Below are positions 1-36,094 of a DNA stretch of 42,008 nt, piece by piece (position 1 is the stretch's first letter; each line of letters opens with the position of its first letter). The translations under genes and the position numbers were made by a program. The stretch comes from a virus. The notes under the pieces were generated by a model. It saw nothing but the letters and a program-made list of their open reading frames with translations, ran no database searches and was not told where the DNA came from. The stretch is taken from IMG/VR virus record IMGVR_UViG_3300045988_028709, positions 1 to 42,008 of that record; one strand, 5' to 3'.

Positions 1-119
1 CTGCGGCACCCTGCGGGGCCGCAGGTGGGTATCCGTAGGGGCTTCCGTACCCCTGATAGGGATTCGCAAAATAATTCATAGCGCACCTCCTTTTTCTGCC
101 TTTATGGTACAAAAAAAGA
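1..119. repeat. Terminal direct repeat, identical to 41890-42008 (circular-assembly overlap or terminal redundancy)
   Basis: Base-by-base comparison of nt 1-119 with 41890-42008 shows identity. Nt 1-79 duplicate the 5' part of the - strand gene 41585-41968. Confidence 0.95.
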
Positions 120-163: not shown

Positions 164-403
164 TTATGAGTGCTTAACGCCGTCCAAAATCTTGGAGTAG
201 GCCCGCCGTCTGCATTTCTTGATGTACTCTGGAGATACGTTCATTTGCCCGGAAACCTGCGTGTAAGACTGCCGCCGGACGTCGATCTGAACAAGGCAGT
301 ATTCCTCGTCTGTCGGCAGCTCAAAGGATTGAATATACGCCTCCGCCCGCTTGGGGGCCATGCCGGATAGCATGGCCCGCAGCGCCTTATGCTCACTGTT
401 CAT
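164..403 (-). CDS. Small sigma-70 region-4-like HTH regulator
   Basis: 79-aa ORF. LPTDEEYCLVQIDVRRQSYTQVSGQMNVSPEYIKKCRRRAYSKI follows the sigma-70 region 4.2 / LuxR-type HTH pattern. No clear SD, so the start is uncertain. Confidence 0.5.
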   Translation of the reverse strand: MNSEHKALRAMLSGMAPKRAEAYIQSFELPTDEEYCLVQIDVRRQSYTQVSGQMNVSPEYIKKCRRRAYSKILDGVKHS

Positions 404-470: not shown

Positions 471-3400
471 TTATTTCCCGGCCAAACGGGCGTTCTTCCG
501 AACTTTCTCGTTTACAAGCGCCTTGTTGTAATGCCGGATGCTTTTGCCTACCCCCAGATACTCAAAAAGTGCGTTCCGCTGCTTCTCACTCAAACCGGGC
601 ATATTGTACACCGCCTGCATGATCAGCAGCCCCTTGCTGTTGGGGATCGTCTCCCCGCTTCTGTCCTTGACGCTTTCCAGATCGGATACCTGCGTTTTCA
701 GCGCCACATAAATTTCCGGCTTAATGCCGTACTTCTTCTGTGCCTCCTGCGCATTCAACACCCACTTGTTCGTGATCTCATAGGTTTTGTCCGTCTCGTG
801 CAGTGCCGTCTTTTTGGCGTAGGTCTCCGCGCTGGACAGGGCCTTGTCTTTCTGCTCGTCAGTGAAGGCCATGAACACCGGGCTGTCCTCCAACCCGGAT
901 TCCATGGAGCTGTAAAGCTCGGACTTCCTGCGGCTGTATACGATGTAGTCATCGGAGCTGAGATCATTTTCCGTAAATTTGTCCTCGCCCTCGCCGGTGC
1001 CGTACCGGTCTTTCACACCGATCAGACTTGCAGCCGCGTCTGGGAGCCTGAAATCCTCATCGTTTTCCCGTTCCTTGTCCAGCTTGCTCCGCATACTGCT
1101 GTCAACGGAGCTGTTGTCCAGCGCCATGAAGTCTTTCAGCTCTTTGCGGATGTGTTCATAGGTGGTCAGGTCTCCCTGCTCCAGCGCCTTGAACGCCAGA
1201 TTCAGGTATCGGCTTTTGTTTGTGGTGCTGTAAATATTGTATGTGAATTTCTCAAATTCATATTCCAGCGCCACGCTGCCGGTAGCTTGAACAGCCGTCC
1301 GGACTGCCGCCATTGCGTCCCGCTTGATGTTGGCCACCGGAAGGCCGAAAAGCTTAGAACAAGCTGCAAACATATTTGTCAGCGCTTCTTCTCTGGTCTT
1401 TTTGCCGCTGCCGCCCATGCTTGCGGTGAAATCTTTAGAGGCAGATACAATGTCAGAAAACACCTGCATGTCCGTCCGGGATACGCTGTACCCCTGCGTC
1501 AGGGAAAGAATATCCTTTACAAACGGGATGCTTCCCAGCTTGTTGATGTTGCTCCCAAGGTTTCCTTCCAAAACAATATGCTGCAGCAGCTCCTTGGTGG
1601 TCTTCTCACCGCCGGTAATGCCGGTCAGTGCCGTCAGGAACTTCTCCCAATAATCCTTGTCCGGATCATCGTCACGCCCTGCGTCTGCGATGCTCTGGGC
1701 CAGTGCGTTAACTACGTCCGTCACCAGCAAAGCAGCAGCCGCACGTCCCACGGTTTTAATGGCCTTGCTCCGCTTGGCAGGGTTCTCTTCATAGCGCATA
1801 TTGTCCCATGCCCGCATGAACACGTTCAGGCTCATGATGGGTTCGCCCATGAACGAGGTCGCCTGCTTGGCAAGGTCGCTCTTGCCGCGCATGATGTTGG
1901 AACGCTGCAAAATGCCGTCTACCACCTGCGTCTGGTCGATCATGTTAGTAAACACTTCATTGACCGCGCTGTAAAATTCACCGCTGCCAGCCCGCAGATT
2001 AGGTCTCTCCCGCTTCACCTGCCACTCGCAGGCGTTCCAGAGCGCGCCCCAGGTAACGGCATCCGCTTTCCCTGCGGGAGCGCCAGCCTTGTCATTGATC
2101 TTGTTGGCGATGCCCTCCTTGCCGTAAAAACGGTCATTCAGGGTATAGGGGGAGGAAATGTCAAAGCTGCCCACGTCCTTCCGCATGGCAATAGGGGAAT
2201 GCGTCAAAGCCTTTTCCCAGCCGTTTCCCTTCGTAACGCCGCCGGTCAGGCCTCTTGCCATGTCAGCAGGATCCAATACGGCGGATGCCCGGAAAAAGGC
2301 GGACGGCTGCTGGATGACCACACGCACGTTCGCACCGACGGCAGCGCCCTTAAAGCTCCCGATGCCTTTTGCGAATTTATCCGTAAGCGGTTCAAAATCC
2401 TTGGTCTTGATGCCGTTCTGGATGTCGCCCATTAACTTCTGCCAGTACTGCTGAGATCCCTGTCCGCCCTTATCTTCCAGGAAGCCCTTTACGGTCTGAA
2501 CGAGATTGCCTTCACTGTCCCGGAACTGGAAGTTGTACAGCCGATTCGCGTCCTCCATGGGACACAGCCACGCTGCGTAGTCGATCATATCGGATGCGTG
2601 GTCCGCGAAGGTGTCAAACACCCCTCGGATGCTCAACGGCGTCGCCGCGTTGGGTTTTACAGCCTGCGCCATGCCGATATTCTTAATGGAGCGCACATTC
2701 CCGCTATCCTTCTCCTGCGAGCTGTGCAGTGCTTCCTTTGCGGATTTGATGGGCCAGTAGTCCTGCTCCGTGAATTTCTTATAGCCGTAGGCTTTCATGC
2801 TGGCCTCGTTGCCGTAGTTGGCAAGAACACCGGTGGTCAGCTTCTGCAAACCGTCCGCAATCCTGATCTGCTCCGGGGTCAAAACCTTCACAATGGACTG
2901 AATATCCTCTGCGGAAAGATGGATCACGTCCGTTCCTCTGGGGGTTTTGGTCTTGCCGGGAATCTTGATCTCCGGCTGCACGATGCCGCCTTTCAGCAGG
3001 TGGTCCTCCGCCTGCTTGCGTTCACTCAGAAGATACAGCTCCATGGCCTGTGCCGTGGTCAGGTCCAGCTCATGGCCTTCCGTTGTGGTGAAATGGTGGA
3101 CTTCCTCATTCATGGACGTTACCGCGTTTTCGCGGATGCCGGTTTTCGCGTCGCCCAGAATCTGGTGAACCTTCTCCGCCACATCCCGTGCCATGATCTC
3201 CTGATGGTCCTGCGCGTTCCGCAGCATCCGGTAAATGTCCTTTCCGGTCTGCCCGAAGTGGGCAAAGAACGTATAAGGCGTTTCCAGACTGATCGTCACG
3301 TTGTTTCCCAGTTTCCGCCGCCGGGTCATGCCGTCCATGCGGAGCGCATCGGCAAACTGCTTGGTGGTCTCGAATTTCTCCGACGCCAGCGTCTTGCCTG

Positions 3401-6400
3401 CCGTGGTTACGGAATGCTCCACGGATTTCAGCACGTTCCACATGGTTTTCAGCTGCTCTGTGGTCAGGTCCGCAAGGCGGGTGTCACCCATCTTGATGAC
3501 CTCGCTGAATCCACCGGTCACATCGTCGCCGCCCAGAAGAGACGGGTCCACCACCATATCGCCATCCTGGGCGATCTTCTGATACTGCTCCTTCAAATTC
3601 TGGAACGCCACCGTCCGGTTCGTCGGCGTGCCCGGTTCCTTGTAAATACGTTCCTTTGTCACAGGGTCCAGCGTAAAGGACCGTGCATTGGGGCTGCTCT
3701 CCTGATTGATGCTTTCCAGCACCTTTGCCACGGCGGAGCGCATATCCTCCGGAATGTGCTGGTTGTCCGTGGGCCGCAGCAGCTTTTGGGACAATGCGCT
3801 GGCATGGCGCACGATCTTAGCCCGCAGTTCTCTCCGCTTCTGATTGTCCCGCCGGGTCACGTCCTTCTCCCGGTAACGCTCCTTCAATGCCTGCACCTGC
3901 TCCGCACGCCGGGTCCGTTCCTTTGCCAATGCCTGCGCCGTGCTTCTTAGACGCTTTGCGTCCTGTCTGCCCTGGGCCATCTGCCCTGCCAAAAAGGCGT
4001 CATTTGCCGCCTGCCTGCCCTGAAATCTGGCTTCCTGCACCTGCTCCGCTGCTCGGTCTGCAAAGGTCTTTTTTGTCTGGGACAGGTCAAAGAACCGGTC
4101 CATAATGTCATTGGAAATAGACGCCACGGCCTGTCCCATGTAGCCTTCAAAGGGGTTGTACTCCGTCACCTTGTACAGCCGGTTCGCCACGTCCGCGATC
4201 CGCTGCACCTGGTCGGAGATGTTGGTATCCTGTGCCTCGTTGAAAAACTCCGGATACTGGTTGGACAGTTCGGAATAGATCTGGTCAACATTGGTGTGTT
4301 CGCCCTTGCTGATTTTCAGCTTGCCGAACAAGCTCTTGCGAAACTCGTTGAAGTCCGTGATCTCGGCGGCATCCGCTTCCGTCAGCGTCAGCTTGGTGTC
4401 TTTCAGATACTTCCGCAGACCGGCGTATTCCTTGTATGCCCGATCGTCCACCTCTACGGCGCTTTCTGCGATCCGCTCCGCAATGGCATCAGACCGTCTC
4501 CGCGCCTCTGCATAGGTCAGCTCGTCTTTGCCGTCCTTGCCGCTGGCAATGTAGTCATACAGACTTTGCAGATCCCCGGCAATCTCGCTGCCGCTAATCT
4601 CCGCGCCGTAGTCCTTTACCAGTGCATCCGCCGCCTTCTGAACGGATTTCCGGTCGGTGGTCACGCCCTGAGACCGTCTGGTCTGGCCCTTCCAGTACTC
4701 CACCCGCTCTTTCAGGATCTCGTTCTCCCGTTTCAGCGCCGCAATCTCCTGCGCGTTCTCCGTGCCCTTTAGGGAAAATTTTGCGTCATCCACGCTGTTG
4801 ACCTTCGCAAGCCGGTCCGCCTCGTCTCCGGCGATATATTCCACCGTGTTGACACCGGCATCCTGCAATGCGGCTTTCAGCTGGTCACTACTGTTGTCCG
4901 GGATCACCGCTGCCAATACCTCGTCAAACCCAACAGCACGCTGGGGCTTGGCTTCAAAGTATTCCGTCGGCAGCGCAGCCGCAGCTTTGTACAATTCCTG
5001 GATCTGCTTTGCGGTCACGTTGCTGATCTTGTAGCCTTCGTTTGCAAACGTCCGCATAATGGAATCAATGGTGCGTTTGCTCCTTGCAGCCTCCATCAGC
5101 ACGGTGCCGATGATCTCGCCCTCTTCAAAGGAATTGTCGGTATGGGCTTTGGTTGTCTGCATGATCCTCTGTGTGACGGCGCGGATCTTATCCTCCACTG
5201 CGCCCATCTGCGCTTTATAGCTGTCCGTTTCCACGGAACCCAGACGCCCGCTGTCATCCCGGATTTCCTGAATGGTCCGGTAAGAAGGCACCGCGCTTGC
5301 CTGCAAGCCTCCGGCAGTCACGCCGGATACCTGTCCGCCACGTTCCTCCTGGGTTTCCTGCATGGCCTTTACAATGTTTTCCAGCGTGTAGCTGTAATGG
5401 GTCTGGTTGAAGCTGCGGCGATTGCCAGAAGACGTGTACGGGTCCTTTCCGTTGTTGATGCCAGGTTCACCAAAGACACCGGTGAGCTGCTTTTCGACCC
5501 AGCCCTTCACGTCCTCGCCGTCAGTCATTTCGTGCAGCTTGTCCTGTGTGCCCCAGCGGTCGATCTCGCCCTTGGTTGCCCCGCCGTCCTGATAGTAGTC
5601 CCATGCGTGACGGGCAAGGCTTTCCAGCGTAAACGGGCTGACGTTTTCCATGCTCTTTTCAATGCGGGCATTTCGCTTCTCGGCAATTTCTTCCTGCGTC
5701 CAGCCTCGCTTTTGGGCCATTCTTTGTAAAATCGCCTCGCCCATGTCCCGGTAATAGTCCCGCAGAATATTCCGGAGCCGTTCCGCATCCTCCCCCAATG
5801 CGGTCTCCACGGACTGCCCCAGTTCAAAATTGGCGTTGATCTCTGCAAGACGCTGTACGCCGATTTCGTCCAGCACGGTCCGCACGGTATCATTTCCGTA
5901 CCTGTCCCACACCTTGTCCTGATAAACCGGTTTCAGTTCTTTCCCGTGGGCCTCCAGATACGCGGCTCTCACCGCGTCATCCCTTGCGAGGATCTCCGCC
6001 GCTTTGATGGGAGAATCTGTGCTGACTTCCTCAATGCCGTGACTTCTCAGTACGCTGCTGCTGGCAAAAATGCCGTTGGCAACTTTCTTGGAAAGCTCGT
6101 TGATCCTGCCCTCCACAGCCAGCGCAGCTTTTGCATTCACCGGGTATTCCACGCCGGGATTAGTGGGTGTATAAGCGTCGCCGCCGTATACTTTGTTCCG
6201 GCTGTCCGCCTGTGGGTCAATGGTGGTCTTGTTGAACAACAGGGAAATGGGGCCGTATTTGCTGTGTCCTGCCTTTGCCTTGACCACGGCAATAGACGGC
6301 ATAGGCAGCCCGCCCAGTTTCAATGCGGCCATAATGCTGGCCTCGTCCTTGTTGTGAACGGCAATCAGCTTGTCCGTTTCCTCAACGGGGGTTTTCAGAG

Positions 6401-9400
6401 AAAAGCGGGTGCTTTCTTTCGCCTTTTTTTGGTTGTCAGCCTTAAACCGCTCATGCAGTTCATTCAGTTCTTTGACGTAGGCAGAAAAGTCATAAAAGGC
6501 TGTGTTAAGAATTTCATTCAGCCCGCCCATATTCCCAGAACTGATGTGCCCATACAACGTCGCGTTCAGTTCGTCATATAGATTGATCCGCTCCGTCTCG
6601 CTCAAAGAAGTATTAAGCGGGTCAATTCCTCTGTGTTTCGCTGTGTGTTCCAGCAGAATGCGGGCTTCAAGTGTAGACATATCCAGCATATCCGGGGTTT
6701 TGGACACAAAGTCAAGGTAAGGCGTATAACCCACCTGCTTCATAACGTGTGTAATTTCGTGGGTGGCGTACATCCCCCGATTCTGCTCAGGCATGGTCTC
6801 CCGGAAATAGATTTGTCCACCGGCAGAAAATGCCGGGGCATTGCCCTTATTCTTGGCCCACGCCGCGTCATCCACAACAAAACTCGGCACACCGTAGTCT
6901 GCCGCTGTTTGCTGTTCTGTATAGGCCACGCTGCCCTGAGACGGTCTCACAATGTGGCCCTCAGCCCAGGAGCGCACAGGCTTCTGCCCGAAAGAGGCGT
7001 TTAATCCTCCCCGCCCTCGCCAAAGTACAGCGTCTCCTCGAAGAATTTCCCCAGCAGATTCTTGTACCGCTCGGTTTCCTTCTCGGTTTTGTTCGGCTTC
7101 TTGCGCAAAACTTCCATCTCCTTGCGCTCTTTCTCGTCCATCGTCCACGCCCTCCTTCACAGCATATCTTGTTTCGCTGATTGTACCATTTGTCTGCCGG
7201 TTCTGCAAGCTTTCCGCCTGCTTGCTGGCCGCTTCAAATGCCGCCTGCAGCTTGCCCTCCACCGTCTGGGCCTGCCGCTTGGCTCTGCCGGTCAGCTTGC
7301 CCACGATCTCATGAATGGCGTCACGCAGCTTTTGCAGCAGCGTCCGGTCGGTGCTGTGCTTCCGGATGAAATCGTCCAGCACGTCGCTGTTGGCGATCAT
7401 CTCACCGGCATAGTTGGCGGTAGCCTCGTCCAATGCCTGTTCGTAGCTGGTTTCAACGCCCGCCCGGTTGTACTGGTCAAGCAGGATGTTCGCCGCTTCC
7501 TGCACGTCTGGAATACTGGCCACGGCATCCCGGAACGCCCGGTACTGCTCCGGGGCCAGCTCCTGTACACGGTGGGTCCACTCGTGGCCTACCACCTGCA
7601 AAGCAGGGTCCACCGCGTCCTTTGCGATCAGAACGTCGCTGCCGGTAATCTGACCGTTTGCGCTTCCGCCCAGCACCTGATCCACCATCCGCGTCCGCAC
7701 GCCCAATGCTTTTGACACGGTGTTCACCTCGTCGGCAACAGCGCTGTCCATTTCACGGGAAACATAATCGTCGAACACAAGGCCGCTGTCCGTTCCGGCG
7801 GTCTTGGCAAACTGCGCCGCCCGCTTCTCTCTTGCAAGAGACGCCGCCGCGTCATTCTGCCCTGCCGCATACGCCGCAAAGGATACCGCGCTGGTACTGT
7901 TGGGGTTCTTCTGGTTGGTCATGCCTGCGTGATACGCCCGCAGAAATTCCCCGGCGTAGTCCCCACGGTCCGTCCCCTGATACGCCGTCTGAAACGCCTT
8001 CCTGCCACTGTCCCCCAGCTTGTCTGCAATACCGGTAAAGGTTTTCTGCACGGCGGCTTCTCGCTGCCGCAAGGCCTGTTCCTCCATGGAAACGGGATTG
8101 CTCACAGTCTGCCGCTGAACGGCTTCTTGAATGGCCCTCTGCGCACCCTCCTGCTGGGTCTGTGCGTTCGTTTGTGCGGGGGTGGTACGTGTACCCTCCT
8201 GAACGTCTGCGCGCTCCTGTGCGCCCTGCTGTGCGGTTCCCAGATCATAGCGGTATGTATTGGGGCTGACAAGCCCGCCCATTGCACCGGACGTGGCTCC
8301 AACCAGAAAGTCATACAGGGAGTTGGAAAGGGTTTCCTGTGCCGTAGCCACATCGCCGCCGTAAATGCGGGGCAGCTGCCATTCCATCCAATCACCGATG
8401 AACTCTTCCAAGCCCTCGCCAACCGCTCCGGCTCCGAAAGTCAGCGCCGATCCCAGCGCCTTTTTACCGGCTTCTGTTTTGGCAAATTTGTCTACTGCAC
8501 TGCGGATGCCGCGTTTTACCACATCATCCAGCGCACCGCCGCCGTATGCCTTTGCGAAGGGCATTGCGATGTTGAACATCTTTTCGGTGAAAACCTCTTT
8601 CGCGGCAGATGCCGTACCGTACAAAAGCTGCCCCTTGTAATCCGCGCCGTCCTGACGTGCCTGCTGGGTAGCCCCGCCGAAGGCGCGCACCGCAAACGGA
8701 GCCATGCCCAGCGCGCCGCCCGTCAGAATGCTGGGGATCGCGTCAAGACCGGTCTGTGTCATGGATGCGCCTGCGTCTACAAGCATGTTGCCAAGGAACC
8801 CTGCGCCTTCTTTTGCCCGCTCCAAATCAGCCTGCGCGCTTCCGGCAAGCTCGTCCGCCTTCCGGTATGCCTGATCGGCCACTGCCTTGTCGGACTGCTC
8901 CACCGCTTTGGTGTAGCTCTCATGGGCTGCGATCCGGCGTTTTGCGGCAGAAAGGTATTTCTGCACCTGCTGTACGTCCACCGCCGTCATGGGCTTGCCG
9001 TCGGCCCACTTTACGTCCCGTAGCATCTTTTCATACTGCTTCACCGCGTCATAATCGCTTTGCAGAGCCGCTCCGGCGTTCTGATTGGCGATTCTGGTAT
9101 TCAGGTAGCCAGCGCCCTCAGCCAGTACGCCACCTACGTTGGTATACGCCGCCGCAGACGATTTCGCACCGCCCTTAATAGTGTTCGTTACGCGGTCCGC
9201 AAAGGAAGGCGTATTGCCGGTATCACGCGGCTCCCGCTTTTGAATGTCCTGCAGCAGGCGGCTGTTTGCCGTGTTCTTCCGACCAACATTGTCCATAGGC
9301 AGGCCGCTCTGCTTCTTTGCAGGAGCCGTCGCAGGTGTAGTTTTCTTCTGTGGAGAGGCCCCCGCAGCGGGGGCGCTCTCCGGTTTATTAAAGTGGCTCC

Positions 9401-9512
9401 GATTCAGCTTCTGTACAGTTTTCACCGCGCCGGACGTGTCTTTCTTGTTCGTGCCTGTTGCCGTTTTGCGATTGCCTGTTCCGAAATAAGACCGATCCAG
9501 TTTTTGTGCCAT
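471..9512 (-). CDS. Giant 3,013-aa multidomain (polyvalent-type) putative virion/ejected protein with two zincin HExxH motifs
   Basis: Uninterrupted 9,042-nt ORF with AGGAGG 6 nt before the ATG at 9512. GHEWTH is encoded at 7572-7586 and THEITH at 6747-6761. It has a basic low-complexity N-terminus, a Gly/Ala-rich hydrophobic segment (aa ~230-420), an HN..GGLPMPSIAV module (aa ~1050-1080) and long coiled-coil stretches. Confidence 0.85.
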   Translation of the reverse strand: MAQKLDRSYFGTGNRKTATGTNKKDTSGAVKTVQKLNRSHFNKPESAPAAGASPQKKTTPATAPAKKQSGLPMDNVGRKNTANSRLLQDIQKREPRDTGNTPSFADRVTNTIKGGAKSSAAAYTNVGGVLAEGAGYLNTRIANQNAGAALQSDYDAVKQYEKMLRDVKWADGKPMTAVDVQQVQKYLSAAKRRIAAHESYTKAVEQSDKAVADQAYRKADELAGSAQADLERAKEGAGFLGNMLVDAGASMTQTGLDAIPSILTGGALGMAPFAVRAFGGATQQARQDGADYKGQLLYGTASAAKEVFTEKMFNIAMPFAKAYGGGALDDVVKRGIRSAVDKFAKTEAGKKALGSALTFGAGAVGEGLEEFIGDWMEWQLPRIYGGDVATAQETLSNSLYDFLVGATSGAMGGLVSPNTYRYDLGTAQQGAQERADVQEGTRTTPAQTNAQTQQEGAQRAIQEAVQRQTVSNPVSMEEQALRQREAAVQKTFTGIADKLGDSGRKAFQTAYQGTDRGDYAGEFLRAYHAGMTNQKNPNSTSAVSFAAYAAGQNDAAASLAREKRAAQFAKTAGTDSGLVFDDYVSREMDSAVADEVNTVSKALGVRTRMVDQVLGGSANGQITGSDVLIAKDAVDPALQVVGHEWTHRVQELAPEQYRAFRDAVASIPDVQEAANILLDQYNRAGVETSYEQALDEATANYAGEMIANSDVLDDFIRKHSTDRTLLQKLRDAIHEIVGKLTGRAKRQAQTVEGKLQAAFEAASKQAESLQNRQTNGTISETRYAVKEGVDDGRERAQGDGSFAQEAEQNREGNRAVQESAGEILRGDAVLWRGRGGLNASFGQKPVRSWAEGHIVRPSQGSVAYTEQQTAADYGVPSFVVDDAAWAKNKGNAPAFSAGGQIYFRETMPEQNRGMYATHEITHVMKQVGYTPYLDFVSKTPDMLDMSTLEARILLEHTAKHRGIDPLNTSLSETERINLYDELNATLYGHISSGNMGGLNEILNTAFYDFSAYVKELNELHERFKADNQKKAKESTRFSLKTPVEETDKLIAVHNKDEASIMAALKLGGLPMPSIAVVKAKAGHSKYGPISLLFNKTTIDPQADSRNKVYGGDAYTPTNPGVEYPVNAKAALAVEGRINELSKKVANGIFASSSVLRSHGIEEVSTDSPIKAAEILARDDAVRAAYLEAHGKELKPVYQDKVWDRYGNDTVRTVLDEIGVQRLAEINANFELGQSVETALGEDAERLRNILRDYYRDMGEAILQRMAQKRGWTQEEIAEKRNARIEKSMENVSPFTLESLARHAWDYYQDGGATKGEIDRWGTQDKLHEMTDGEDVKGWVEKQLTGVFGEPGINNGKDPYTSSGNRRSFNQTHYSYTLENIVKAMQETQEERGGQVSGVTAGGLQASAVPSYRTIQEIRDDSGRLGSVETDSYKAQMGAVEDKIRAVTQRIMQTTKAHTDNSFEEGEIIGTVLMEAARSKRTIDSIMRTFANEGYKISNVTAKQIQELYKAAAALPTEYFEAKPQRAVGFDEVLAAVIPDNSSDQLKAALQDAGVNTVEYIAGDEADRLAKVNSVDDAKFSLKGTENAQEIAALKRENEILKERVEYWKGQTRRSQGVTTDRKSVQKAADALVKDYGAEISGSEIAGDLQSLYDYIASGKDGKDELTYAEARRRSDAIAERIAESAVEVDDRAYKEYAGLRKYLKDTKLTLTEADAAEITDFNEFRKSLFGKLKISKGEHTNVDQIYSELSNQYPEFFNEAQDTNISDQVQRIADVANRLYKVTEYNPFEGYMGQAVASISNDIMDRFFDLSQTKKTFADRAAEQVQEARFQGRQAANDAFLAGQMAQGRQDAKRLRSTAQALAKERTRRAEQVQALKERYREKDVTRRDNQKRRELRAKIVRHASALSQKLLRPTDNQHIPEDMRSAVAKVLESINQESSPNARSFTLDPVTKERIYKEPGTPTNRTVAFQNLKEQYQKIAQDGDMVVDPSLLGGDDVTGGFSEVIKMGDTRLADLTTEQLKTMWNVLKSVEHSVTTAGKTLASEKFETTKQFADALRMDGMTRRRKLGNNVTISLETPYTFFAHFGQTGKDIYRMLRNAQDHQEIMARDVAEKVHQILGDAKTGIRENAVTSMNEEVHHFTTTEGHELDLTTAQAMELYLLSERKQAEDHLLKGGIVQPEIKIPGKTKTPRGTDVIHLSAEDIQSIVKVLTPEQIRIADGLQKLTTGVLANYGNEASMKAYGYKKFTEQDYWPIKSAKEALHSSQEKDSGNVRSIKNIGMAQAVKPNAATPLSIRGVFDTFADHASDMIDYAAWLCPMEDANRLYNFQFRDSEGNLVQTVKGFLEDKGGQGSQQYWQKLMGDIQNGIKTKDFEPLTDKFAKGIGSFKGAAVGANVRVVIQQPSAFFRASAVLDPADMARGLTGGVTKGNGWEKALTHSPIAMRKDVGSFDISSPYTLNDRFYGKEGIANKINDKAGAPAGKADAVTWGALWNACEWQVKRERPNLRAGSGEFYSAVNEVFTNMIDQTQVVDGILQRSNIMRGKSDLAKQATSFMGEPIMSLNVFMRAWDNMRYEENPAKRSKAIKTVGRAAAALLVTDVVNALAQSIADAGRDDDPDKDYWEKFLTALTGITGGEKTTKELLQHIVLEGNLGSNINKLGSIPFVKDILSLTQGYSVSRTDMQVFSDIVSASKDFTASMGGSGKKTREEALTNMFAACSKLFGLPVANIKRDAMAAVRTAVQATGSVALEYEFEKFTYNIYSTTNKSRYLNLAFKALEQGDLTTYEHIRKELKDFMALDNSSVDSSMRSKLDKERENDEDFRLPDAAASLIGVKDRYGTGEGEDKFTENDLSSDDYIVYSRRKSELYSSMESGLEDSPVFMAFTDEQKDKALSSAETYAKKTALHETDKTYEITNKWVLNAQEAQKKYGIKPEIYVALKTQVSDLESVKDRSGETIPNSKGLLIMQAVYNMPGLSEKQRNALFEYLGVGKSIRHYNKALVNEKVRKNARLAGK

Positions 9513-9522
9513 ATCACGCCTC

Positions 9523-11421
9523 CTACGCTCCCAGCATACGGTTCAATTCTTCCTGCTGCTTGGTGCTTAAACTGTCAAAATACTGATTATACAGTTGGAA
9601 CGCTCTGTCTCCGCTGCCTTGTGCAACCAGCGTTTGAATCGAACGCTTCAAATCGCCAAAATTGGGGACATTGCCTGAACCGGCAGCGCTGGGCTGTTCA
9701 TATCCATAGGCGCTTTCCAGATATTCATCGCTATATCCCGCATTGTGGAACGCATCCAGAACATCCTGCGTGAAAATGCCCTGTTTGGCGTTGTCCTTTG
9801 CAACGCTCAACTTCATGCCGCTATCCTCGCGTTTCTTTCCTCCGCTGCTCCCACTGCGTCCGCTCTTCGCCTTTGCCGTCTGCGCGATCTGATACGCCTG
9901 CCGCATGCTTTCGATCTGGCTGTCGGTGTAGCCAAGCGCCTTGTAGCCGGAGAAATCGCCGTAGGACGCCATCATATCCGCCTGCTGCGCCGCCTTGTTC
10001 CACTCGTCCTGAGACATGTTGTAGTCCCATTCCTTCTGCTTCCACTGGTTGGCAAGCGCGTCCTGCGCCTGCTGATAGGCAAAATTCCGGTCCGTGTTCC
10101 ACTGGTTCAGCTTGTCTCCGTACTCACCGTATTCCCGGTCATAGGCGTCGCTCAGCATACCAAGGCTGCTCAGCTTGTCGCTGCGGTCCTGCTGATACAT
10201 TTCTCTGGCAGCCTGCTCCAGCTTGCTCATCCAATCGTTGTATTCCTGATTGGCGACGCTGGCCGCATAGGAGGATGCCAGACCGCCGGTGCGGGAGGAT
10301 ACCTGTCCCAGCAGATCGTTCATGCCCATCTCGCCGTTGGCCGCGTACTGGTCGCGCAGGGCGGAATACTGGTCGCCCTTCTTCCAGTCCGCCAGATTGC
10401 TGTTGAGGATCTGATCGATCAGCGCCCGCATTTCGGAATCGTAGGTATAGTCAAAGCTCGGCCTCCCGGCGTCGCTGGTGTTGAACCCGTTGTTGACCAG
10501 CCCCTGCAGAATGTCCACGTTTCCCACTGTGGGATAGGGGATCTGCTGTCCCGGCGTATAGTCCTTCATAAAGTCCTCGTAGGACTTCACCTGCCCTGCC
10601 GCCTGCGCGAGAGGGGATGTGTCCGTGCCCATCAGATACCGGTAGTAGGCCAGCTCCGCGCTTTCCGGGCTGACGTCCAGCCCCAGCCGCCGCCGCAGAT
10701 CATTCACGGAGGAAAGAGCGCCGCTGTCCGTCACATAGCCGTTCTTGTCGATGGTATAGCCATATCCGGCGCGAATGGCATTTGCCGCCTGGTTTGCCTG
10801 ATCGCCTGTGATCTTCCCCGCCTGCATCTGCGCCCGGATATCCGCAATTTTCTTTCGGTCAGCAGCCGTCAGCATTTCGTTATCCGTCCATGCGCCGTTT
10901 TGGTTATAGCTGCCGTTCCCAGCATTGATATCCTGATGAGGCGTATAATCTGCCACACCCTTTACGGCATTTTTGGCGTATCCGTTCTCATCGTAAAACA
11001 CGGTATATCCGTTGGACACCGCATACCCGCCTGCCAGATCCGGCCTGCGGCTCATGTCCGCACCACCAGTCATTTTCTTCCAGTACCCGGACATATCCGT
11101 GGGCTGCAAATTGGCTGCCCCGTAAATACCCGGCGTGGTATAGCCGCCGGTGCCGTAGCCGGGGCCTTTTACATAAGGCGTCCCACCGGTTGCCGTCTGA
11201 GAGCTGCCGCCGGAAGATCCGCTGTTGCCCCGGTTGCCGGACCCGCCGTTGCCCATAATATCGTTCTTGCCCTGATACGGGTCCTTGCCCCCGTATGTAG
11301 CGTCGATTTTGTTCTGCCGCTCTTGGCGCAGCTTGTCAATCGATTCCTGACTGTCACCTCGCTGCTGTGCCTTTACGATCTCAAGCGAGTAGTCTTTGTT
11401 TTTGTCCCAATACCCTGCCAT
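9523..11421 (-). CDS. Hypothetical virion protein (Gly/Ser linkers, Gln/Tyr/Asp-rich)
   Basis: 632-aa ORF whose ATG overlaps the upstream stop (ATGA at 11421). Low-complexity GGSGNRGNSGSSGGSS and SGRSGSSGG linkers. No family recognised. Directly precedes the giant gene. Confidence 0.7.
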   Translation of the reverse strand: MAGYWDKNKDYSLEIVKAQQRGDSQESIDKLRQERQNKIDATYGGKDPYQGKNDIMGNGGSGNRGNSGSSGGSSQTATGGTPYVKGPGYGTGGYTTPGIYGAANLQPTDMSGYWKKMTGGADMSRRPDLAGGYAVSNGYTVFYDENGYAKNAVKGVADYTPHQDINAGNGSYNQNGAWTDNEMLTAADRKKIADIRAQMQAGKITGDQANQAANAIRAGYGYTIDKNGYVTDSGALSSVNDLRRRLGLDVSPESAELAYYRYLMGTDTSPLAQAAGQVKSYEDFMKDYTPGQQIPYPTVGNVDILQGLVNNGFNTSDAGRPSFDYTYDSEMRALIDQILNSNLADWKKGDQYSALRDQYAANGEMGMNDLLGQVSSRTGGLASSYAASVANQEYNDWMSKLEQAAREMYQQDRSDKLSSLGMLSDAYDREYGEYGDKLNQWNTDRNFAYQQAQDALANQWKQKEWDYNMSQDEWNKAAQQADMMASYGDFSGYKALGYTDSQIESMRQAYQIAQTAKAKSGRSGSSGGKKREDSGMKLSVAKDNAKQGIFTQDVLDAFHNAGYSDEYLESAYGYEQPSAAGSGNVPNFGDLKRSIQTLVAQGSGDRAFQLYNQYFDSLSTKQQEELNRMLGA

Positions 11422-11882
11422 CAGGTGGTCCCTCCTTTTGCTTCCAGCGCTGTGACGCGCTGATCAATATTCTGCACGGTGGCTTGCAGCGCTGTGACCC
11501 GCTGGTCTGTGCTCTGCACGGTGGTTTTAAGCGCAGCGACGTCCGATTGCAGAGTGCCCACGGAGGATTGCAGCGCCGTCACGTTCTGGCTCAATGTCTG
11601 TATGCTGTTATTCAGCCCGGAAACCGTTGTCTCCAAGGTGGTGATCTGCCCCTGCATCGCCGTGACGCTGGACTGCATGGCCTGTACGTTGTTCTGCAGC
11701 GCCGCCACGATCAGCACCATTTCCGCCGTACTGGTTCCCGCCGAGGACAGGGTGCGGGTAAGATTGGAATTGTTGAACTCCAGCCGCTCCCGCATATAGG
11801 AGATATAGTTTTCCAGCGTCCGCAGGCTCCCTGCAGCGTCCTGCGGGTCCAGATGGTTCAATTCCTTGTCGAAAATCGCCAT
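11421..11882 (-). CDS. Coiled-coil fibre-like protein with 14-aa repeats
   Basis: 153-aa ORF with repeated units such as DQRVTALQATVQNI/DQRVTALEAK.. and VTALQSSVGTLQSDVAALKTTVQ. The DNA shows a 42-nt periodicity. Confidence 0.7.
   Translation of the reverse strand: MAIFDKELNHLDPQDAAGSLRTLENYISYMRERLEFNNSNLTRTLSSAGTSTAEMVLIVAALQNNVQAMQSSVTAMQGQITTLETTVSGLNNSIQTLSQNVTALQSSVGTLQSDVAALKTTVQSTDQRVTALQATVQNIDQRVTALEAKGGTT
11445..11612. repeat. Degenerate 42-bp tandem repeats (about 4 units) inside the coiled-coil gene
   Basis: Units start at 11445 and 11487 (cagcgctgtgac.cgctg.tc....tctgcacggtgg). More diverged units follow at 11529 and 11571. Confidence 0.6.
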
Positions 11883-11883: not shown

Positions 11884-13407
11884 CTACACCTCCGAACCCA
11901 CCCGGAACCGCCGGATCATGCCAAGGATCGCGCACGCGCCCTGCCCAGACAACCGTACCTCGTATTTGTCACACCGTCTTGGCCGTACCGGAAGAAGCTG
12001 CGGGCCTTTCCCGTGAAGGCTTCCGATCTTCTCCCATTTCCCGTTGTCGCACCGTACCTCCGCCTGCATCCACGCCTTTTCTCCCAGCTCAAACCGGAGA
12101 TACAGGGAGGAATATACCTTCTTCCCCTCCATGGTCTCGTAGAAGGGCGTAAACGTGGCGCTCCAGTCAATGATTTCACTGCCCGTGTCCGCATCCAGTG
12201 ACCACAGGGACCCGTCGGAGGACAGCATATAGAGGAAACTGTTGTACCGGCAGAAATCCAGTGCCTCCGTGTCATCCTCTTCCAGCCATACCCCCTGCTG
12301 GGTGTCATACACCAGAAGGTGCCACACGCCGCCGCTTTTGGCGGACATGTAGTAGTTCTTACCGTCCGTCCCGCTGACGGCATCCGTAAACCGCTTGGCT
12401 CCGAACATCTGGGATACCAGAGACGGCGTACCGCCGGAATAGGCGTACACGCCGTCCGGCCCCTTGTAAAAAAGAACGTCATTGATGACCTGCATGCTCT
12501 TGAAGCTCCCCTCCTGCACCCCGGTAATGTCCGAGGTGTAGAGGGCGTATTCCGCAGGGTAGCTGCCCAGAATCTTGTGCAGCAGGTTTTCCTTCCAGAA
12601 AAGCACGGAGGAACTCAGCTTGCAGCACCCGGTAAAATTCCCAGCAGAGCCAACCGCCAGTGCATAGGAATCCGTGGAGATCCCCTGATACACGAAAAAG
12701 TTTTTCGGATCGCCCAAAGAGGACGCGTAAATGGTCTTGTTGGCGTTGCTCACGCCCCAAAGCCGGTTCTCACTTTCGCAGATGAAATCCAGATCCGGGA
12801 TCTTCCGCTCGATTTTCATGGTGCCTGCTTCCGTGCAAGCCGCCAGCGCGTTTGCGGAGAATGTCAGCTTGTCTCCATCCACGGCTTTGATGACGATATC
12901 CTTGTTGTTTTCCTTTTTTGTGGTGCAGCCGGAGATTGTGATTCCGTCCCCGGCAGAGAATTTGGAGGAAAGCCCTGCCCCCGTCATGGTGATGCTGTCG
13001 GTGGTTACAACGGCATTGGCCTTTTCTGCACTGGCTCCCAGCTCGTGCAGCGCGGACGTGTTCAGGTCCAGATATTTCTTGTCCGGCCAGATCACCAGCT
13101 TTGTGTTGACCACGGCAAACTGCTTTTCCCCTGCCGTCACTGTCCCAACCACATTGCCGTCATAGATCAGGCTCGTACCGTCCACCACCACCAGCTTATT
13201 CCATGCAGTAACGGCGGTAGGGGACACATAGTCCCCCACCGGCAGCCGCCGCAGCCGTGTAGACAGATAGGGATACCTGCGGGTAGAGAGGTTCCGGCAG
13301 GCAGAAAAATTCCCATCCGTAAAGTTGTCGGAGAAATTGATCCCCAAAAACTCTACGATCTGCTGTTTCGTTTTCTGCTCTGCGTATTTCAGACTTGGAA
13401 GATACAT
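11884..13407 (-). CDS. Putative tail/virion structural protein (beta-rich, propeller-like repeats)
   Basis: 507-aa ORF in the late operon with repeated beta-strand-rich segments (..LWGVSN.., ..LFYKGPDGVYAYSGG.., ..LYMLSSDGSLWSLD..). Function inferred from context only. Confidence 0.55.
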   Translation of the reverse strand: MYLPSLKYAEQKTKQQIVEFLGINFSDNFTDGNFSACRNLSTRRYPYLSTRLRRLPVGDYVSPTAVTAWNKLVVVDGTSLIYDGNVVGTVTAGEKQFAVVNTKLVIWPDKKYLDLNTSALHELGASAEKANAVVTTDSITMTGAGLSSKFSAGDGITISGCTTKKENNKDIVIKAVDGDKLTFSANALAACTEAGTMKIERKIPDLDFICESENRLWGVSNANKTIYASSLGDPKNFFVYQGISTDSYALAVGSAGNFTGCCKLSSSVLFWKENLLHKILGSYPAEYALYTSDITGVQEGSFKSMQVINDVLFYKGPDGVYAYSGGTPSLVSQMFGAKRFTDAVSGTDGKNYYMSAKSGGVWHLLVYDTQQGVWLEEDDTEALDFCRYNSFLYMLSSDGSLWSLDADTGSEIIDWSATFTPFYETMEGKKVYSSLYLRFELGEKAWMQAEVRCDNGKWEKIGSLHGKGPQLLPVRPRRCDKYEVRLSGQGACAILGMIRRFRVGSEV

Positions 13408-13416: not shown

Positions 13417-13779
13417 TTACATGGTCTTGAACCAATTCCCGTCCGTTGCCGGTCGGTTCGTCCGCCGGTAATAGCTCCGGTATTCCTGCATGGCGCTGTT
13501 GAACACGGCCATGTCATTGGCGTACAGGTCTGTTTCCCGATTGTACAAATCGATCATAGCGATTACATACAGGTGATACAGGCGGTCATACGGATGGGGC
13601 ACCAGCAGCTCCGTTCCGGCGTCCTCCGGCCACGAATAGGCTACCGGGTCCGTTTTCAGCAGCTCCACACTCAGCTGCCCGTCCAATTCAGAAAGCCAGC
13701 CGGTGATCTGCTCATCCGTGTAGAGGTCAGGCCGTACCGCCTGCGTCTGGGCGATGACCTCTGAAATGGTTTTGTTCAT
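13417..13779 (-). CDS. Hypothetical late protein
   Basis: 120-aa ORF tightly packed between the endolysin and the 507-aa gene. No family recognised. Confidence 0.6.
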   Translation of the reverse strand: MNKTISEVIAQTQAVRPDLYTDEQITGWLSELDGQLSVELLKTDPVAYSWPEDAGTELLVPHPYDRLYHLYVIAMIDLYNRETDLYANDMAVFNSAMQEYRSYYRRTNRPATDGNWFKTM

Positions 13780-13788: not shown

Positions 13789-14814
13789 TTATCCGTTCCA
13801 GTCAGATTTGACCTCTCTCACATCAATGTGCGTGAAGCCTTTCTGACTGTATACGCCCACACCGCCCCAGTCTGGCATCAGTTGTCGCGCGTAGGCCGCT
13901 ACCGCTGCCGGTTTCTGCCCCCGCACGGTAATGTCCGCCGCCGTGCCGTAGCAGTGCTGGCTGTGGGCCACGCCGCCGACCTTGGTATTGTACTGCGGCG
14001 TCCGATACCCACTGTTGATGGTCACAGCCGCGCCGAAGTGACTGCGGATGCTCTGTAAAACCATCACCAGCCGGGGCGCCACCAGTACGGCATCGGAGCC
14101 GTCCTTGCAGGCAAATTCTTTCACTTTAAAATGGGTGGACAGCTTCTTGCCGCCGTCCTTCGCCTTGGAATAGGCGTTGATCTCTACCATAGGTTTCTCT
14201 CCTTCCGGCTCACACGCATCCCCGCTTTTCTTTTTCCACACCAGGAAGAACGGAATCACCCGCCCGTCCCCGGTAAAGCCCTTGCCCTCGCTGTCCATGA
14301 AGCAGGTAGACCCGCCGCCGTCCATCATAATGGCGTTGTCCCAGCCGGACGCAGTCAGCAGGTCACGGAGCTGTTCCGGTGTCCGCCGGTCCTTGCTCAC
14401 ATAGTAAGCGAACCGCCCGTTCTTGGTGCCGATGGCCGTCCGAGGGGCGCGGTAGCGCATATCCGCTCCGCAGTGGATGGGGCTGATCTTCTTCCCGCCG
14501 ATGATGAGGTGAACGCACTCCATGTAATTCCGGTCCCCATTGGGCACGGTTTTCACGCCGAAGTCCGCCGGGGTGTCCCAGCTGATGGCCCACGCCCGGT
14601 AATTGGGGGCCTTGTAGACTTTGCCGTCTGCCTTCAAATGGCAGGCCGGTGTCTGATTCCGCAGGAAAATGGAGCCATTGCAGATAGCGTCCCCGCCCGC
14701 CTCCGCCAGCATCTTTTTCAGGTTGGACGTGGTGGAGCGGAGACGCTTTTGGTTGAAATAGATCTTGATGAATTGGAGATCGGAGAGCGGGACGGTGCCC
14801 GCTCTCGTGCTCAT
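13789..14814 (-). CDS. Two-domain endolysin: N-terminal phosphodiester-glycosidase-like (NAGPA/DUF2233-type) plus C-terminal peptidase M15A-like
   Basis: N-terminal half has ..AIMMDGGGSTCF.. typical of the NAGPA-type domain. C-terminal half has F.V.EFACKD....L...L..IR..FG..V.INSGYRTP.YN..VGG...S.H..G.AAD (M15A/YcbK-type Zn peptidase). Immediately follows the holin. Confidence 0.75.
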   Translation of the reverse strand: MSTRAGTVPLSDLQFIKIYFNQKRLRSTTSNLKKMLAEAGGDAICNGSIFLRNQTPACHLKADGKVYKAPNYRAWAISWDTPADFGVKTVPNGDRNYMECVHLIIGGKKISPIHCGADMRYRAPRTAIGTKNGRFAYYVSKDRRTPEQLRDLLTASGWDNAIMMDGGGSTCFMDSEGKGFTGDGRVIPFFLVWKKKSGDACEPEGEKPMVEINAYSKAKDGGKKLSTHFKVKEFACKDGSDAVLVAPRLVMVLQSIRSHFGAAVTINSGYRTPQYNTKVGGVAHSQHCYGTAADITVRGQKPAAVAAYARQLMPDWGGVGVYSQKGFTHIDVREVKSDWNG

Positions 14815-15266
14815 GTGTGAGCCTCCGAATTCTGTTTCCCCTGATCGCTGGCCTGACGAATGGCATCCAGCATATTTTTAATAAAGGCGGGGTAGGGAAC
14901 CCCCATCACTGCCGTATTCTCCAAAATCGACAGCCCCTCGTTTGCGATGAAAAACATACACACTGCGTCCCGCACAAAATCGCTGGATGTGGCCTGATCC
15001 AGTAATGCCCCCATCCATACCAGCGCCAGCATGACGCACTTTTTCGCCAGCCCCTTGAACCCGGCGTCGGAACTCAGCGCCCCGGTGCCGCTCTTGCTGG
15101 ACTTATGCCAGATGGCTGCTACCATCCAGCCGGTGGCGTAGTCCAGCACCATGAAACAGATCAGCACTTTCAGCGCCATATCCCAGCCCCCCAGAGCCTG
15201 GGCGATGGCGGAGCCAGCCGCAGCCAGCACCGCCAACACCGTGTTTTTGATGTGTAAAGCGTTCAT
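14811..15266 (-). CDS. Holin (phage_holin_4_1 / TcdE-like family)
   Basis: AAGGAGG 6 nt before the ATG at 15266. Multi-TM protein with the VLDYATGW...SSK.G..G..KK pattern of this holin family. Overlaps the endolysin start. Confidence 0.8.
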   Translation of the reverse strand: MNALHIKNTVLAVLAAAGSAIAQALGGWDMALKVLICFMVLDYATGWMVAAIWHKSSKSGTGALSSDAGFKGLAKKCVMLALVWMGALLDQATSSDFVRDAVCMFFIANEGLSILENTAVMGVPYPAFIKNMLDAIRQASDQGKQNSEAHT

Positions 15267-15286
15267 TGTGTACCTCCTTTCGGTGG

Positions 15287-15607
15287 TCACACCCGCACGG
15301 CCTTCTCAGGACGACCATCCTCGTCGAAGGTAATACGGTAATGGCCTTCCGGCGTCCAGACCTCCTCCTCGGTGTTGGCCTTAGCAGGGTCACGCCGCAT
15401 GTAATCGTGGAGGTGCTTCACGTCCTCCGGCTCGGTCTCTGCGGGGATAAAGCCCTCGGCCATCTCAGCCTCGGTCCAGTTGGCCACGCCGCCGTCAGGA
15501 TTCAGGTGGAAGTTGGCCCCCGCCTCCTTCAGCTCCTTGTTGATGGCCTCGATGGTCTTGCCGCTCTTGCAGCCCTCGTTGATGATCTCAGCAAACTTCT
15601 TTTCCAT
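15287..15607 (-). CDS. Hypothetical acidic protein
   Basis: Start chosen at MEKKFAEI (15607), 8 nt after AGGGG. 106 aa. No family recognised. Confidence 0.55.
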   Translation of the reverse strand: MEKKFAEIINEGCKSGKTIEAINKELKEAGANFHLNPDGGVANWTEAEMAEGFIPAETEPEDVKHLHDYMRRDPAKANTEEEVWTPEGHYRITFDEDGRPEKAVRV

Positions 15608-15630
15608 AATGTATACCCCTTTCATTTTTT

Positions 15631-15648
15631 CGGTTGAATCTTCAACCG
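15631..15648. promoter_or_regulatory. Perfect 8-bp-arm palindrome CGGTTGAA-TC-TTCAACCG in the divergent region
   Basis: Lies between the - strand start at 15607 and the + strand micro-gene at 15731. On the + strand it is followed by ATTTTAATTT. Could be an operator or an antisense-blocking terminator. Confidence 0.3.
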
Positions 15649-15730
15649 ATTTTAATTTGTTGTTGCCCCACATTCCGACGCGTTTCGACCCGGCCTCTGT
15701 GGTATCATCCCCTCAAAGGAGGTGGTCAAC

Positions 15731-15871: not shown

Positions 15872-15885
15872 CCTCCGGCTTTTTT
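15859..15885 (+). terminator. Rho-independent terminator of the + strand micro-gene
   Basis: GCCGGAGG (15859-15866) pairs with CCTCCGGC (15872-15879) around loop ATTGA, which contains the TGA stop, followed by TTTTTT (15880-15885). Confidence 0.6.
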
Positions 15886-19049: not shown

Positions 19050-19104
19050 ACGCCCTCCATAGAAAATGCGGGCAAACGGCAGGAAACCGTCTGCCCGCAT
19101 CGGG

Positions 19105-19362
19105 TTACATATCGGCCAAAGCCTTGGCGCTGTTCTTCTGTGCCGCCATCTGTGCCTTGTAGGCTTCCATTTCCTGTTTCTCTGCGTTCTGCAGCACCAG
19201 CAGGAACTTCCTCTTGATCTGCACAGTCTCACCACGCATAATGCGGATGATCTCACCGTTGACGCCCACGATAATATCGCGGGAATCCGTGCGGCCCATG
19301 AGAGGTGCGGTATACTCTACCAGCTCCTCATTGGGGTCCGTTACCTTCTTAGCTTCGCTCAT
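19105..19362 (-). CDS. Small hypothetical protein following the capsid gene
   Basis: 85-aa ORF 13 nt downstream of the capsid gene. No family recognised. Confidence 0.6.
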   Translation of the reverse strand: MSEAKKVTDPNEELVEYTAPLMGRTDSRDIIVGVNGEIIRIMRGETVQIKRKFLLVLQNAEKQEMEAYKAQMAAQKNSAKALADM

Positions 19363-36070: not shown

Positions 36071-36094
36071 CCCGTCCTCCTTTCGCAAAAGTCC

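Follow-up and report, generated by a model that had tools for sequence, protein, structure and literature searches.

The stretch of DNA analysed here, positions 1 to 42,008 of IMG/VR virus record IMGVR_UViG_3300045988_028709 (the window, 42,008 nucleotides (nt)), carries on its minus strand a single open reading frame (ORF) that encodes a giant protein of 3,013 amino acids (aa). Judged by its sequence, it belongs to the phage polyvalent proteins as Iyer et al. defined them (2017; J Bacteriol; PMC5512222), and we think it rather probable that it is a chassis with exchangeable cassettes which is packaged into the virion and ejected with the DNA. The chassis consists of a basic N-terminus with a duplicated motif, Gly/Ala segments, a conserved zincin (zincin 1), a coiled coil and an all-alpha C-terminal module (C-module) of ~1,200-1,400 aa. 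The cassettes occupy a single slot between zincin 1 and the coiled coil, which in this phage holds a DUF4157 zincin (zincin 2) and a predicted PBECR5 RNase unit and is bounded by the peptide [RK][FY]SLK on disordered linkers.

The translation of the giant gene, made from the ORF listing of the window, contains 0 internal stops, and a GGAGG ribosome-binding site lies 6 nt 5' of its ATG. The preliminary description of this DNA, which gave no strand for the gene, had called it a single uninterrupted 3,013-aa ORF with a ribosome-binding site that takes up about 22 percent of the genome. Both points hold, the computed share being 21.6% of a circular ~41.9-kb (~41,889-bp) temperate phage genome. The start codon lies 10 nt past the stop codon of the preceding gene on the same strand, which encodes a 632-aa protein, and the two genes are therefore tightly packed. 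In a large protein database 2,491 homologs of the giant protein were found. The best 120 of these are 2,915-3,114 aa long, are 86-100% identical across shared parts and derive from gut metagenomes, from which it follows that the ORF is conserved. No near-identical DNA match to the giant gene was found in GenBank phages, and the protein matches among GenBank phages were fragments from faecal contigs together with cassette 2, the latter in Acinetobacter phage Ab9 and Bacteroides phage BF1-TP2 only.

A chassis with one cassette slot

Polyvalent proteins combine many effectors in one giant polypeptide encoded among virion genes, with PBECR-type RNase and zincin domains and a domain content that differs among orthologues; the prediction for them is that they enter the virion and are delivered along with the DNA (PMC5512222). 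The giant protein resembles them in gene context and domain make-up, and the same prediction applies to it. Pfam matched it with PBECR5 (PF18814) and eCIS_core/DUF4157 (PF13699), and a search of NCBIfam gave no match. The PBECR5 match spans aa 1035-1232 and profile positions 2-197 of 239 (E=2.4e-61, 208.1 bits against a cutoff of 25), and it gives a name to a module that had earlier been recognized by the string HN....GGLPMPSIAV. PBECR5 was defined in the polyvalent-protein study as a predicted phage RNase of the BECR fold (PMC5512222). Across 21 PBECR5 sequences, H1053, N1054, H1083, D1099, Y1109 and D1112 are at least 95% conserved, and these histidines and polar residues fit a predicted BECR-fold RNase in this protein as well. 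The eCIS_core match (aa 882-927) is marginal, at 25.0 bits against a gathering cutoff of 22, and H918, E919 and H922 of this second zincin are conserved in 6 sequences. Exactly two HExxH motifs are present, HEWTH at aa 643 and HEITH at aa 918, in precisely the places where they had been reported (Table 1). From composition 0.04 such motifs would be expected, and two or more copies arose in 0.085% of 20,000 shuffles. One polypeptide thus holds at least two distinct domains of the polyvalent repertoire, namely PBECR5, the eCIS_core zincin and the conserved zincin 1.

Comparison of close homologs revealed how these domains are exchanged, and that domain architecture varies among orthologues. In four homologs compared, the block from ...ETRYA[AV]K to ...[RK]FSLK[TAS]PVEETDKL is replaced whole, and in one variant among them aa ~70-450 are replaced instead. 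In near-identical phages the place of cassette 1 is taken by a 156-aa module, either alone or followed by the ADP-ribosyltransferase (ART) domain ART-PolyVal; homolog P0058 has ART-PolyVal instead of cassette 1. The ART cassette had no match when compared with plasmids. Splitting the best 120 homologs at the joints distinguished 3-4 cassette types at slot position 1 and, at position 2, two alleles of the PBECR5 unit; all combinations of them occur among proteins 86-100% identical over their shared parts. PBECR5 and the ~340 residues that follow it behave as a single mobile unit, and this unit is also found in the giant proteins of the unrelated cultured phages Ab9 (24% identity, E=6e-28) and BF1-TP2 (22% identity). 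In 13 long, distant members, the interval between zincin and coiled coil was found to contain ART-PolyVal (8), LPD3 (4), PBECR5, LPD23, GNAT and MuF_C. The LPD-type domains for which a search had been proposed are therefore present in relatives, as LPD3 and LPD23 in Pfam. Together with PBECR5 and eCIS_core here, these relatives bear out the earlier view of a polyvalent-type protein, and its mosaic architecture is seen directly in cassettes reshuffled between near-identical phages. As read from these sequences, recombination swaps cassettes between otherwise near-identical prophages, which is the signature of an arms race.

The conservation of each part was examined by searching pieces of the giant protein against the 150 best representatives, and it differs sharply along the chain (Table 1). 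The cassettes are sporadic, PBECR5 being matched in 27 representatives and the zincin 2 segment in 6. The zincin 1 segment was matched in 94 representatives, 92 of which retain its HExxH motif, mostly as HExTH. H643, E644, H647 and E696 are invariant in a 28-sequence alignment, and the same four positions are kept in 13 distant members; E696 is the candidate for the third ligand. Conservation of the HExxH motifs among homologs had been put forward as a check on the preliminary description. The first motif passes it clearly, whereas the second belongs to a swappable cassette. The AlphaFold2 (AF2) model of aa 481-795 has a predicted local distance difference test (pLDDT) score of 89.8, and ~96 in the part with zincin topology. 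It contains a helix, three strands, the HExxH helix and a later helix with E696, which is the core arrangement of zincin-like peptidases given by Iyer et al. (PMC5512222), including the Glu on the later helix. In motif and modelled topology, zincin 1 is a zincin of the gluzincin type (HEWTH...E696) that matches no named family. In this it differs from the zincins of Iyer et al., as it has no Pfam match.

The C-module is the family-defining part. An exhaustive search with aa 1801-2999 recovered 4,165 representatives (50%-identity clusters) at E<=1e-3 and 2,748 at 1e-30, and in all matches listed the module stands at the C-terminal end of a protein of 1,400-4,200 aa. PHROG 22978, of unknown function, matched aa 1585-2958 over its profile positions 2055-3386 of 3513 (E=0, 1,727 bits). 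An AF2 model of aa 1801-2999, built from a 41-sequence alignment, is almost wholly helical (pLDDT 76, predicted template modelling score 0.62). Among the predicted viral structures of BFVD, 92 matched the C-module at E<=1e-3, and all those listed are C-terminal pieces of giant proteins from uncultured phages which are named for the cassette they carry. Pfam gave no match to the C-terminal core, and PDB sequence and profile searches with the whole protein and the C-module returned only coiled-coil or low-complexity matches. Since the C-module is constant while the cargo beside it varies, a carrier role is suggested.

At the other end of the chassis, the first 100 residues contain 20 Lys and Arg against 7 Asp and Glu, in agreement with the basic N-terminus described before, and the segment was matched in 0 of the 150 representatives. 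A motif of ~10 aa is duplicated there (p=0.025 in this protein). Among full-length representatives, 64 of 134 show such a duplication at p<=0.01, where ~1 would be expected from shuffles of the same 150 residues. In the usual layout within the first ~150 residues, copy 1 begins at about residue 2-7 and copy 2 follows 20-60 residues on. The sequence of the motif is clade-specific while the duplication recurs, the N-termini of P0125-P0198 included. Paired identical motifs that evolve fast suggest binding to a symmetric, co-evolving partner, and from its sequence the duplicated motif is a possible bivalent docking or loading signal.

The next segment had been described as Gly/Ala-rich and hydrophobic at aa ~230-420. 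The composition stands, Gly and Ala making up 29-34% of residues 201-400; the hydrophobicity is moderate only, as the highest hydropathy of any 19-residue window in the region is 1.23 and none is transmembrane-like. By hydropathy, no transmembrane helix was found in this region of the protein. In sequence the region is weakly kept (10 of 150 representatives by phmmer), although Gly/Ala-rich hydrophobic segments occur at the equivalent position in all divergent relatives despite the poor conservation.

Terms for linker, domain boundary and tape measure are absent from the text of PMC5512222, and the C-module, the bounded slot, the junction peptide and the N-terminal duplication were for that reason not found described there. 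The slot with its bounding junction peptide, the invariant unclassified zincin, the large C-module and the duplicated N-terminal motif all appear to be undescribed.

The junction peptide

The three joints of the giant protein, read with the preceding residue, are TRYAVK, TRFSLK and AKFSLK, and an example of the junction-linker peptide is ESTRFSLKTPVE. The pattern [RK][FY]SLK was defined after it had been sighted in this protein, where its chance count is 0.09, and the family served as the independent test. Across the 150 representatives it was seen 189 times against 24 expected. RFSLK, RYSLK and KFSLK are the commonest forms, often after ...NPT.DPDI, and exact RFSLK accounts for 49 of the 189. 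Both anchors are present in 94 proteins, which contain 129 strict motifs; all but two of these (127) fall inside the slot, where the density is 2.3 per 1,000 aa, compared with 0-0.015 elsewhere. The number of motifs grows with slot length, and members that are nearly slotless have almost none.

Because the motif is confined to cassette borders, is missing from members without cassettes, and marks exactly where swaps between close relatives start and stop, it could be a mere by-product of cassette exchange, left where recombination joined the parts and without any role of the peptide itself. Two observations make this unlikely. In a set of 25 distinct junctions taken from related loci, synonymous variation is seen at all five codons, which argues that selection acts on the peptide and not on a DNA site. 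Moreover, proteins with no more than ~40% identity in the conserved core still share the peptide. If the peptide itself is the selected feature, cleavage offers one explanation: processing by a resident zincin was proposed for polyvalent proteins in general (PMC5512222), and it is possible that the zincin of this family cleaves at or near the junctions.

A bolder proposal is that of a novel delivery code, in which the C-module and the duplicated N-terminal motif would together form a device for capsid loading and ejection, and the junction peptide would be a functional linear motif serving either as a site where each effector is released after injection or as a replisome hook. As a whole we hold this to be quite unlikely. 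RFSLK is a variant of the PCNA/beta-clamp-interacting motif APIM ([KR][FYW][LIVA][LIVA][KR]) (Nedal et al., 2020; PMC7261172). Peptides with RFSLK bound the E. coli beta-clamp with a dissociation constant below 50 uM and, when overexpressed, blocked growth and mutagenesis (PMC7261172). The resemblance is a five-residue coincidence that came from an after-the-fact text search and is a lead only; if the replisome-hook variant were true, the injected chain would display beta-clamp binders on its disordered linkers.

It is highly improbable that the Prp cysteine protease encoded by the phage recognizes [RK][FY]SLK and separates the modules of the chain in the prohead, and this idea was largely rejected. 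The phage does encode Prp between its portal and scaffold genes, known Prp sites are cut after Phe before a small residue (e.g., NLQFF'ASKK), and in the junctions Ser or Ala comes after an aromatic residue. However, the site found close to the N-termini of the capsid and scaffold proteins of this lineage is L-x-[LIM]-F'[ADE]. No such site is present in the giant protein, and the pattern is under-represented in its family (67 seen vs 127 expected). The junctions mismatch it at P2 (Arg/Lys, not hydrophobic), P4 and P1'. Going by these patterns, the phage's Prp probably does not cut the junctions of the giant protein.

Host Prp uses a motif of the L-x-[LIM]-F'[A/D/E] type on ribosomal protein L27 and on capsid proteins of phage 80alpha. 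As a separate observation, the N-terminal propeptides of capsid and scaffold in these phages end in L-x-[LIM]-F'[A/D/E], an arrangement kept down to 29% anchor identity. The sites read VQIF'AD in the capsid protein and LFLF'DG in the scaffold of this phage, and NLQLF'AD in distant relatives.

Proposed packaging and ejection

The late block to which the giant gene belongs also encodes terminase, portal, capsid, holin and endolysin. A search anchored on the 507-aa protein recovered 49 related loci of 29-100% identity. On every contig that extends far enough, these loci show the order portal-Prp-scaffold-capsid...120-507-153-632, even at the lowest identity of 29%, and an ORF of >2,000 aa comes immediately after the 632-aa gene in those loci. 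The experimental precedent is gp47 (vb_24B_48) of the Stx phage phi24B, a protein of 2,807-2,811 aa that was detected in purified virions by proteomics (2026 preprint). It is invisible in the reconstruction, and the authors of the preprint proposed it to be an ejection protein. Like the protein studied here, gp47 is a giant polyvalent protein with a metallopeptidase, encoded by the last large late gene of a temperate short-tailed phage, and a weak similarity over the zincin strands and HExxH was detected between the two (hhalign E=0.007-0.009). It differs in having 0 [RK][FY]SLK motifs, in its LPD5, LPD1 and LPD38 domains and in its Gram-negative host. It is from the conserved gene position and this virion-proteomics precedent that packaging and ejection of the giant protein are inferred, and by analogy they are plausible.

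A sequence of four steps can be proposed. The giant protein would first be produced in the late phase along with head and tail proteins, which is the sole step with direct sequence support. The chassis would then load a few copies into the capsid. At infection these would leave through the short tail with or before the DNA, as beads on a string, along with the 153-aa and 632-aa proteins. In the cytoplasm the cassettes would act against host defences based on RNA or protein, and the chain may be processed by the conserved zincin, at the junctions or close to them.

Several results weigh against the packaged and ejected carrier. The virion data are those of phi24B, and the synteny arguments from P22 and N4 are likewise analogies of organisation and not homology. 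No relation could be detected between the C-module and a protein whose location is known. A PDB fold search with its model gave nothing significant (best E 0.19), and profile comparison detected no similarity to the phi24B giant protein. Two candidate relatives were tried and rejected. Homology to the encapsidation domain of N4 gp50 failed in hhalign (E=0.38 against gp50 aa 2101-3500, E=0.42 against full gp50), and a single-sequence match to T7 gp16 that covered the most conserved motif (E=0.041) fell to E=0.35 with a probability of 0.17% when a 21-sequence profile was used. Of the P22 proteins gp4/10/26/14/7/20/16, only gp26 scored with a neighbour gene, the 153-aa protein (probability 53%, E=1.4e-4, maybe from coiled-coil bias), in an hhalign comparison that lacked power, since even the portal and capsid controls failed. 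With regard to zincin 1, Pfam peptidase and MPTase models gave no match in this protein and the 13 distant members, and a PDB fold search with its model found nothing significant, which is why it is called by motif and topology. Finally, members free of cassettes have an intact zincin 1 and almost no junction motifs, and cassette release can therefore not be its sole role.

If the protein were made late and left unpackaged, it could be a polyprotein for host takeover, anti-defence or superinfection exclusion that works in the producing cell or lysogen. Packaging is inferred and not directly observed, RNase, ART, GNAT and zincin cassettes could act in cis in the infected cell, and the phage is temperate and found integrated in metagenome-assembled genomes (MAGs). 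Nevertheless, the start codon follows a structural-block gene by 10 nt on the same strand, and the gene keeps its place behind the needle-like and 632-aa genes in loci of as little as 29% identity. Anti-defence enzymes are moreover most useful when the DNA enters, as argued by Iyer et al. (PMC5512222), and the analogous phi24B gp47 is present in virions. On balance an unpackaged role is rather unlikely.

A chiefly structural role, as a tape-measure-like ruler or a trans-envelope channel of a short-tailed phage with accessory enzymes, is very unlikely. In its favour, no tape-measure, tube or sheath family was matched among the late-region ORFs searched; the gene is at the position of the P22/T7 ejection proteins, and Gly/Ala-rich hydrophobic segments stand at the same place in all divergent relatives. 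On the other side, the giant protein matched no tape-measure family in Pfam, PHROGs and NCBIfam, showed no profile similarity to T7 gp16 (E=0.35), to N4 ejection proteins or, in the comparison whose controls failed, to those of P22, and has no segment at transmembrane hydropathy. Lengths in the family range about two-fold, from ~2,200 to ~4,200 aa, as enzyme cassettes come and go, which does not suit a ruler. A second function as tape measure or tail-length part is accordingly not supported, while a channel formed by the chassis alone would be compatible with a packaged and ejected carrier.

Other phages offer comparisons of organisation. N4 packages gp50, its 3,500-aa virion RNA polymerase, a beads-on-a-string protein with an HExxH zincin whose loosely linked domains are thought to thread the tail. 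N4 gp52, gp51 and gp50 (L004 6524-19524) are 150, 644 and 3,500 aa long, and the corresponding proteins here, in the same order, 153, 632 and 3,013 aa. In contrast to gp50, no RNA polymerase domain was found in the giant protein with Pfam, and hhalign found nothing between N4 gp51/gp52 or the phi24B neighbours and the 632-aa and 153-aa proteins; the C-module profile was also negative against phi24B gp48. The resemblance to N4 is, by this analogy, one of organisation and not of ancestry. T7 gp14/15/16 and P22 gp7/20/16 are encoded at the same late-operon position, after adaptor, nozzle and needle-like genes. These ejection proteins are alpha-helical and needed only at entry, but have no exchangeable effector cassettes. 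In Acinetobacter phage Ab9 (38.7 kb), the 2,839-aa giant protein that has cassette 2 (L058 3265-11784) is encoded after two 'internal virion protein' genes and a 773-aa 'endolysin' gene, and its profile comparison with the C-module was negative.

The class of protein is thus already known and an experimentally packaged analogue exists, while the carrier part of this family was previously uncharacterised. What host immunity first encounters of a phage is believed to be its polyvalent proteins, and almost none have been studied. The present family is very large (>4,000 clusters at 50% identity) and common in Clostridia prophages of the human gut, and its fixed carrier with one marked slot is an unusually clear layout. 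This layout makes it possible to test how a small capsid takes up and releases a protein of >300 kDa, whether a protease separates the effectors of the chain and, if so, which one, and which host defences are defeated by RNase, ADP-ribosyltransferase, acetyltransferase and zincin cassettes. The natural swaps between near-identical prophages are ready-made isogenic comparisons, and the defined slot would be a practical route for bringing designed cargo into phage particles.

Genome and neighbouring genes

An exact direct repeat of 119 bp is present at the ends of the window (1-119 and 41890-42008), which therefore represents one whole genome of ~41.9 kb, assembled in circularly permuted form. 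The order of the late genes was obtained from PHROG and Pfam searches of minus-strand ORFs and is given in Table 1 with the parts of the giant protein.

Table 1. Parts of the giant protein and other genes of the window; fractions give the representatives matched.
Feature	Position (nt)	Strand	Remarks
Giant ORF	471..9512	-	3,013 aa + stop; ATG start; polyvalent protein
Basic low-complexity N-terminus, aa 1-110	9183..9512	-	from composition
N-terminal motif, copy 1, aa 2-11	9480-9509	-	AQKLDRSYFG
N-terminal motif, copy 2, aa 33-42	9387-9416	-	VQKLNRSHFN
Gly/Ala-rich region, aa 111-450	8163..9182	-	moderately hydrophobic, small-residue-rich segments
Helical region and zincin 1, aa 481-781	7170..8072	-	HEWTH nt 7572-7586; E696 nt 7425-7427
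Junction 1, aa 782-786	7155..7169	-	RYAVK; AF2 pLDDT<50, predicted disordered
Cassette 1, DUF4157/eCIS_core zincin, aa 787-1035	6408..7154	-	HEITH nt 6747-6761
Junction 2, aa 1036-1040	6393..6407	-	RFSLK
Cassette 2, PBECR5 and ~340-aa unassigned module, aa 1041-1577	4782..6392	-	
Junction 3, aa 1578-1582	4767..4781	-	KFSLK; PHROG 22978 match begins at aa 1585
Coiled-coil/helical region, aa 1583-1800	4113..4766	-	opens the C-terminal unit; 130/150
All-alpha C-terminal core, aa 1801-2815	1068..4112	-	family-defining; 150/150
Variable C-terminal tail, aa 2816-3013	474..1067	-	61/150
Large terminase	23610-25046	-	PHROG/Pfam
Portal	21707-23599	-	PHROG/Pfam
Prp-family cysteine protease	21354-21710	-	Pfam PF04327, E=6.5e-15; GHA...C motif conserved
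Putative scaffold	20434-21357	-	PHROG/Pfam
Major capsid protein	19375-20412	-	PHROG/Pfam
85-aa protein	19105-19362	-	
Ala-rich fibre-like protein	within 17313-19256	-	
DUF6273 protein	16588-17313	-	one of two
DUF6273 protein	15884-16588	-	one of two
128-aa protein	15287-15673	-	
Holin	14811-15290	-	PHROG/Pfam
Endolysin	13789-14814	-	PHROG/Pfam
120-aa protein	13417-13779	-	
507-aa protein	11884-13407	-	PHROG 511 'internal virion protein'
153-aa coiled-coil protein	11421-11882	-	tail-needle/fibritin-like PHROG matches
632-aa orphan	9523-11421	-	directly upstream of, and always paired with, the giant gene; no family match
79-aa ORF	164-403	-	after the giant gene
Large serine integrase	38304-39689	+	other strand

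The preliminary description had recognized no tape-measure, tube or sheath gene, as is also the outcome of the family searches of the late-region ORFs, and a short-tailed virion is for that reason plausible. The 507-aa and 632-aa proteins gave low-complexity matches or none when compared with PDB sequences. The preliminary description had also placed the giant gene at the end of the late operon. It is the last large gene, but the 79-aa ORF follows it on the same strand. By eye, a long hairpin (CCCAAACAAA...TTTGTTTGGG) with a T-run can be read on the minus strand at window ~105-160, where the late unit probably has its true end. A simple terminator scan found no minus-strand terminator in 1-700, for which the 16-nt loop of that hairpin is probably to blame.

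In window 17313-19362 the mechanically derived ORF of 647 aa is over-called, its first ~70 residues being nonsense rich in Arg, Cys and Trp. The region more likely comprises the 85-aa gene and a fibre-like protein of ~578 aa with a long Ala-rich centre. Three relatives (L001-L003) have collagen-repeat fibre genes at the same place.

The phage is temperate, carries the serine integrase and is found integrated in MAGs. In the MAGs the prophage is integrated beside a truncated GerA gene of a Clostridiales bacterium. This GerA-family spore-germination gene, truncated to 228-242 aa, was located at 21629-22357 of L002 (MAG GCA_001915795, Clostridiales bacterium 42_27) and at 21671-22357 of L003, a second metagenome scaffold. 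A prophage end next to GerA and a serine integrase are reminiscent of the elements that interrupt sporulation genes in Firmicutes. Within window 36000-40000, which holds the integrase and lysogeny region, the G+C content is 0.49-0.50 and the strand skews vanish, whereas the rest of the genome has a G+C content of 0.52-0.61 and skews that are consistently negative.

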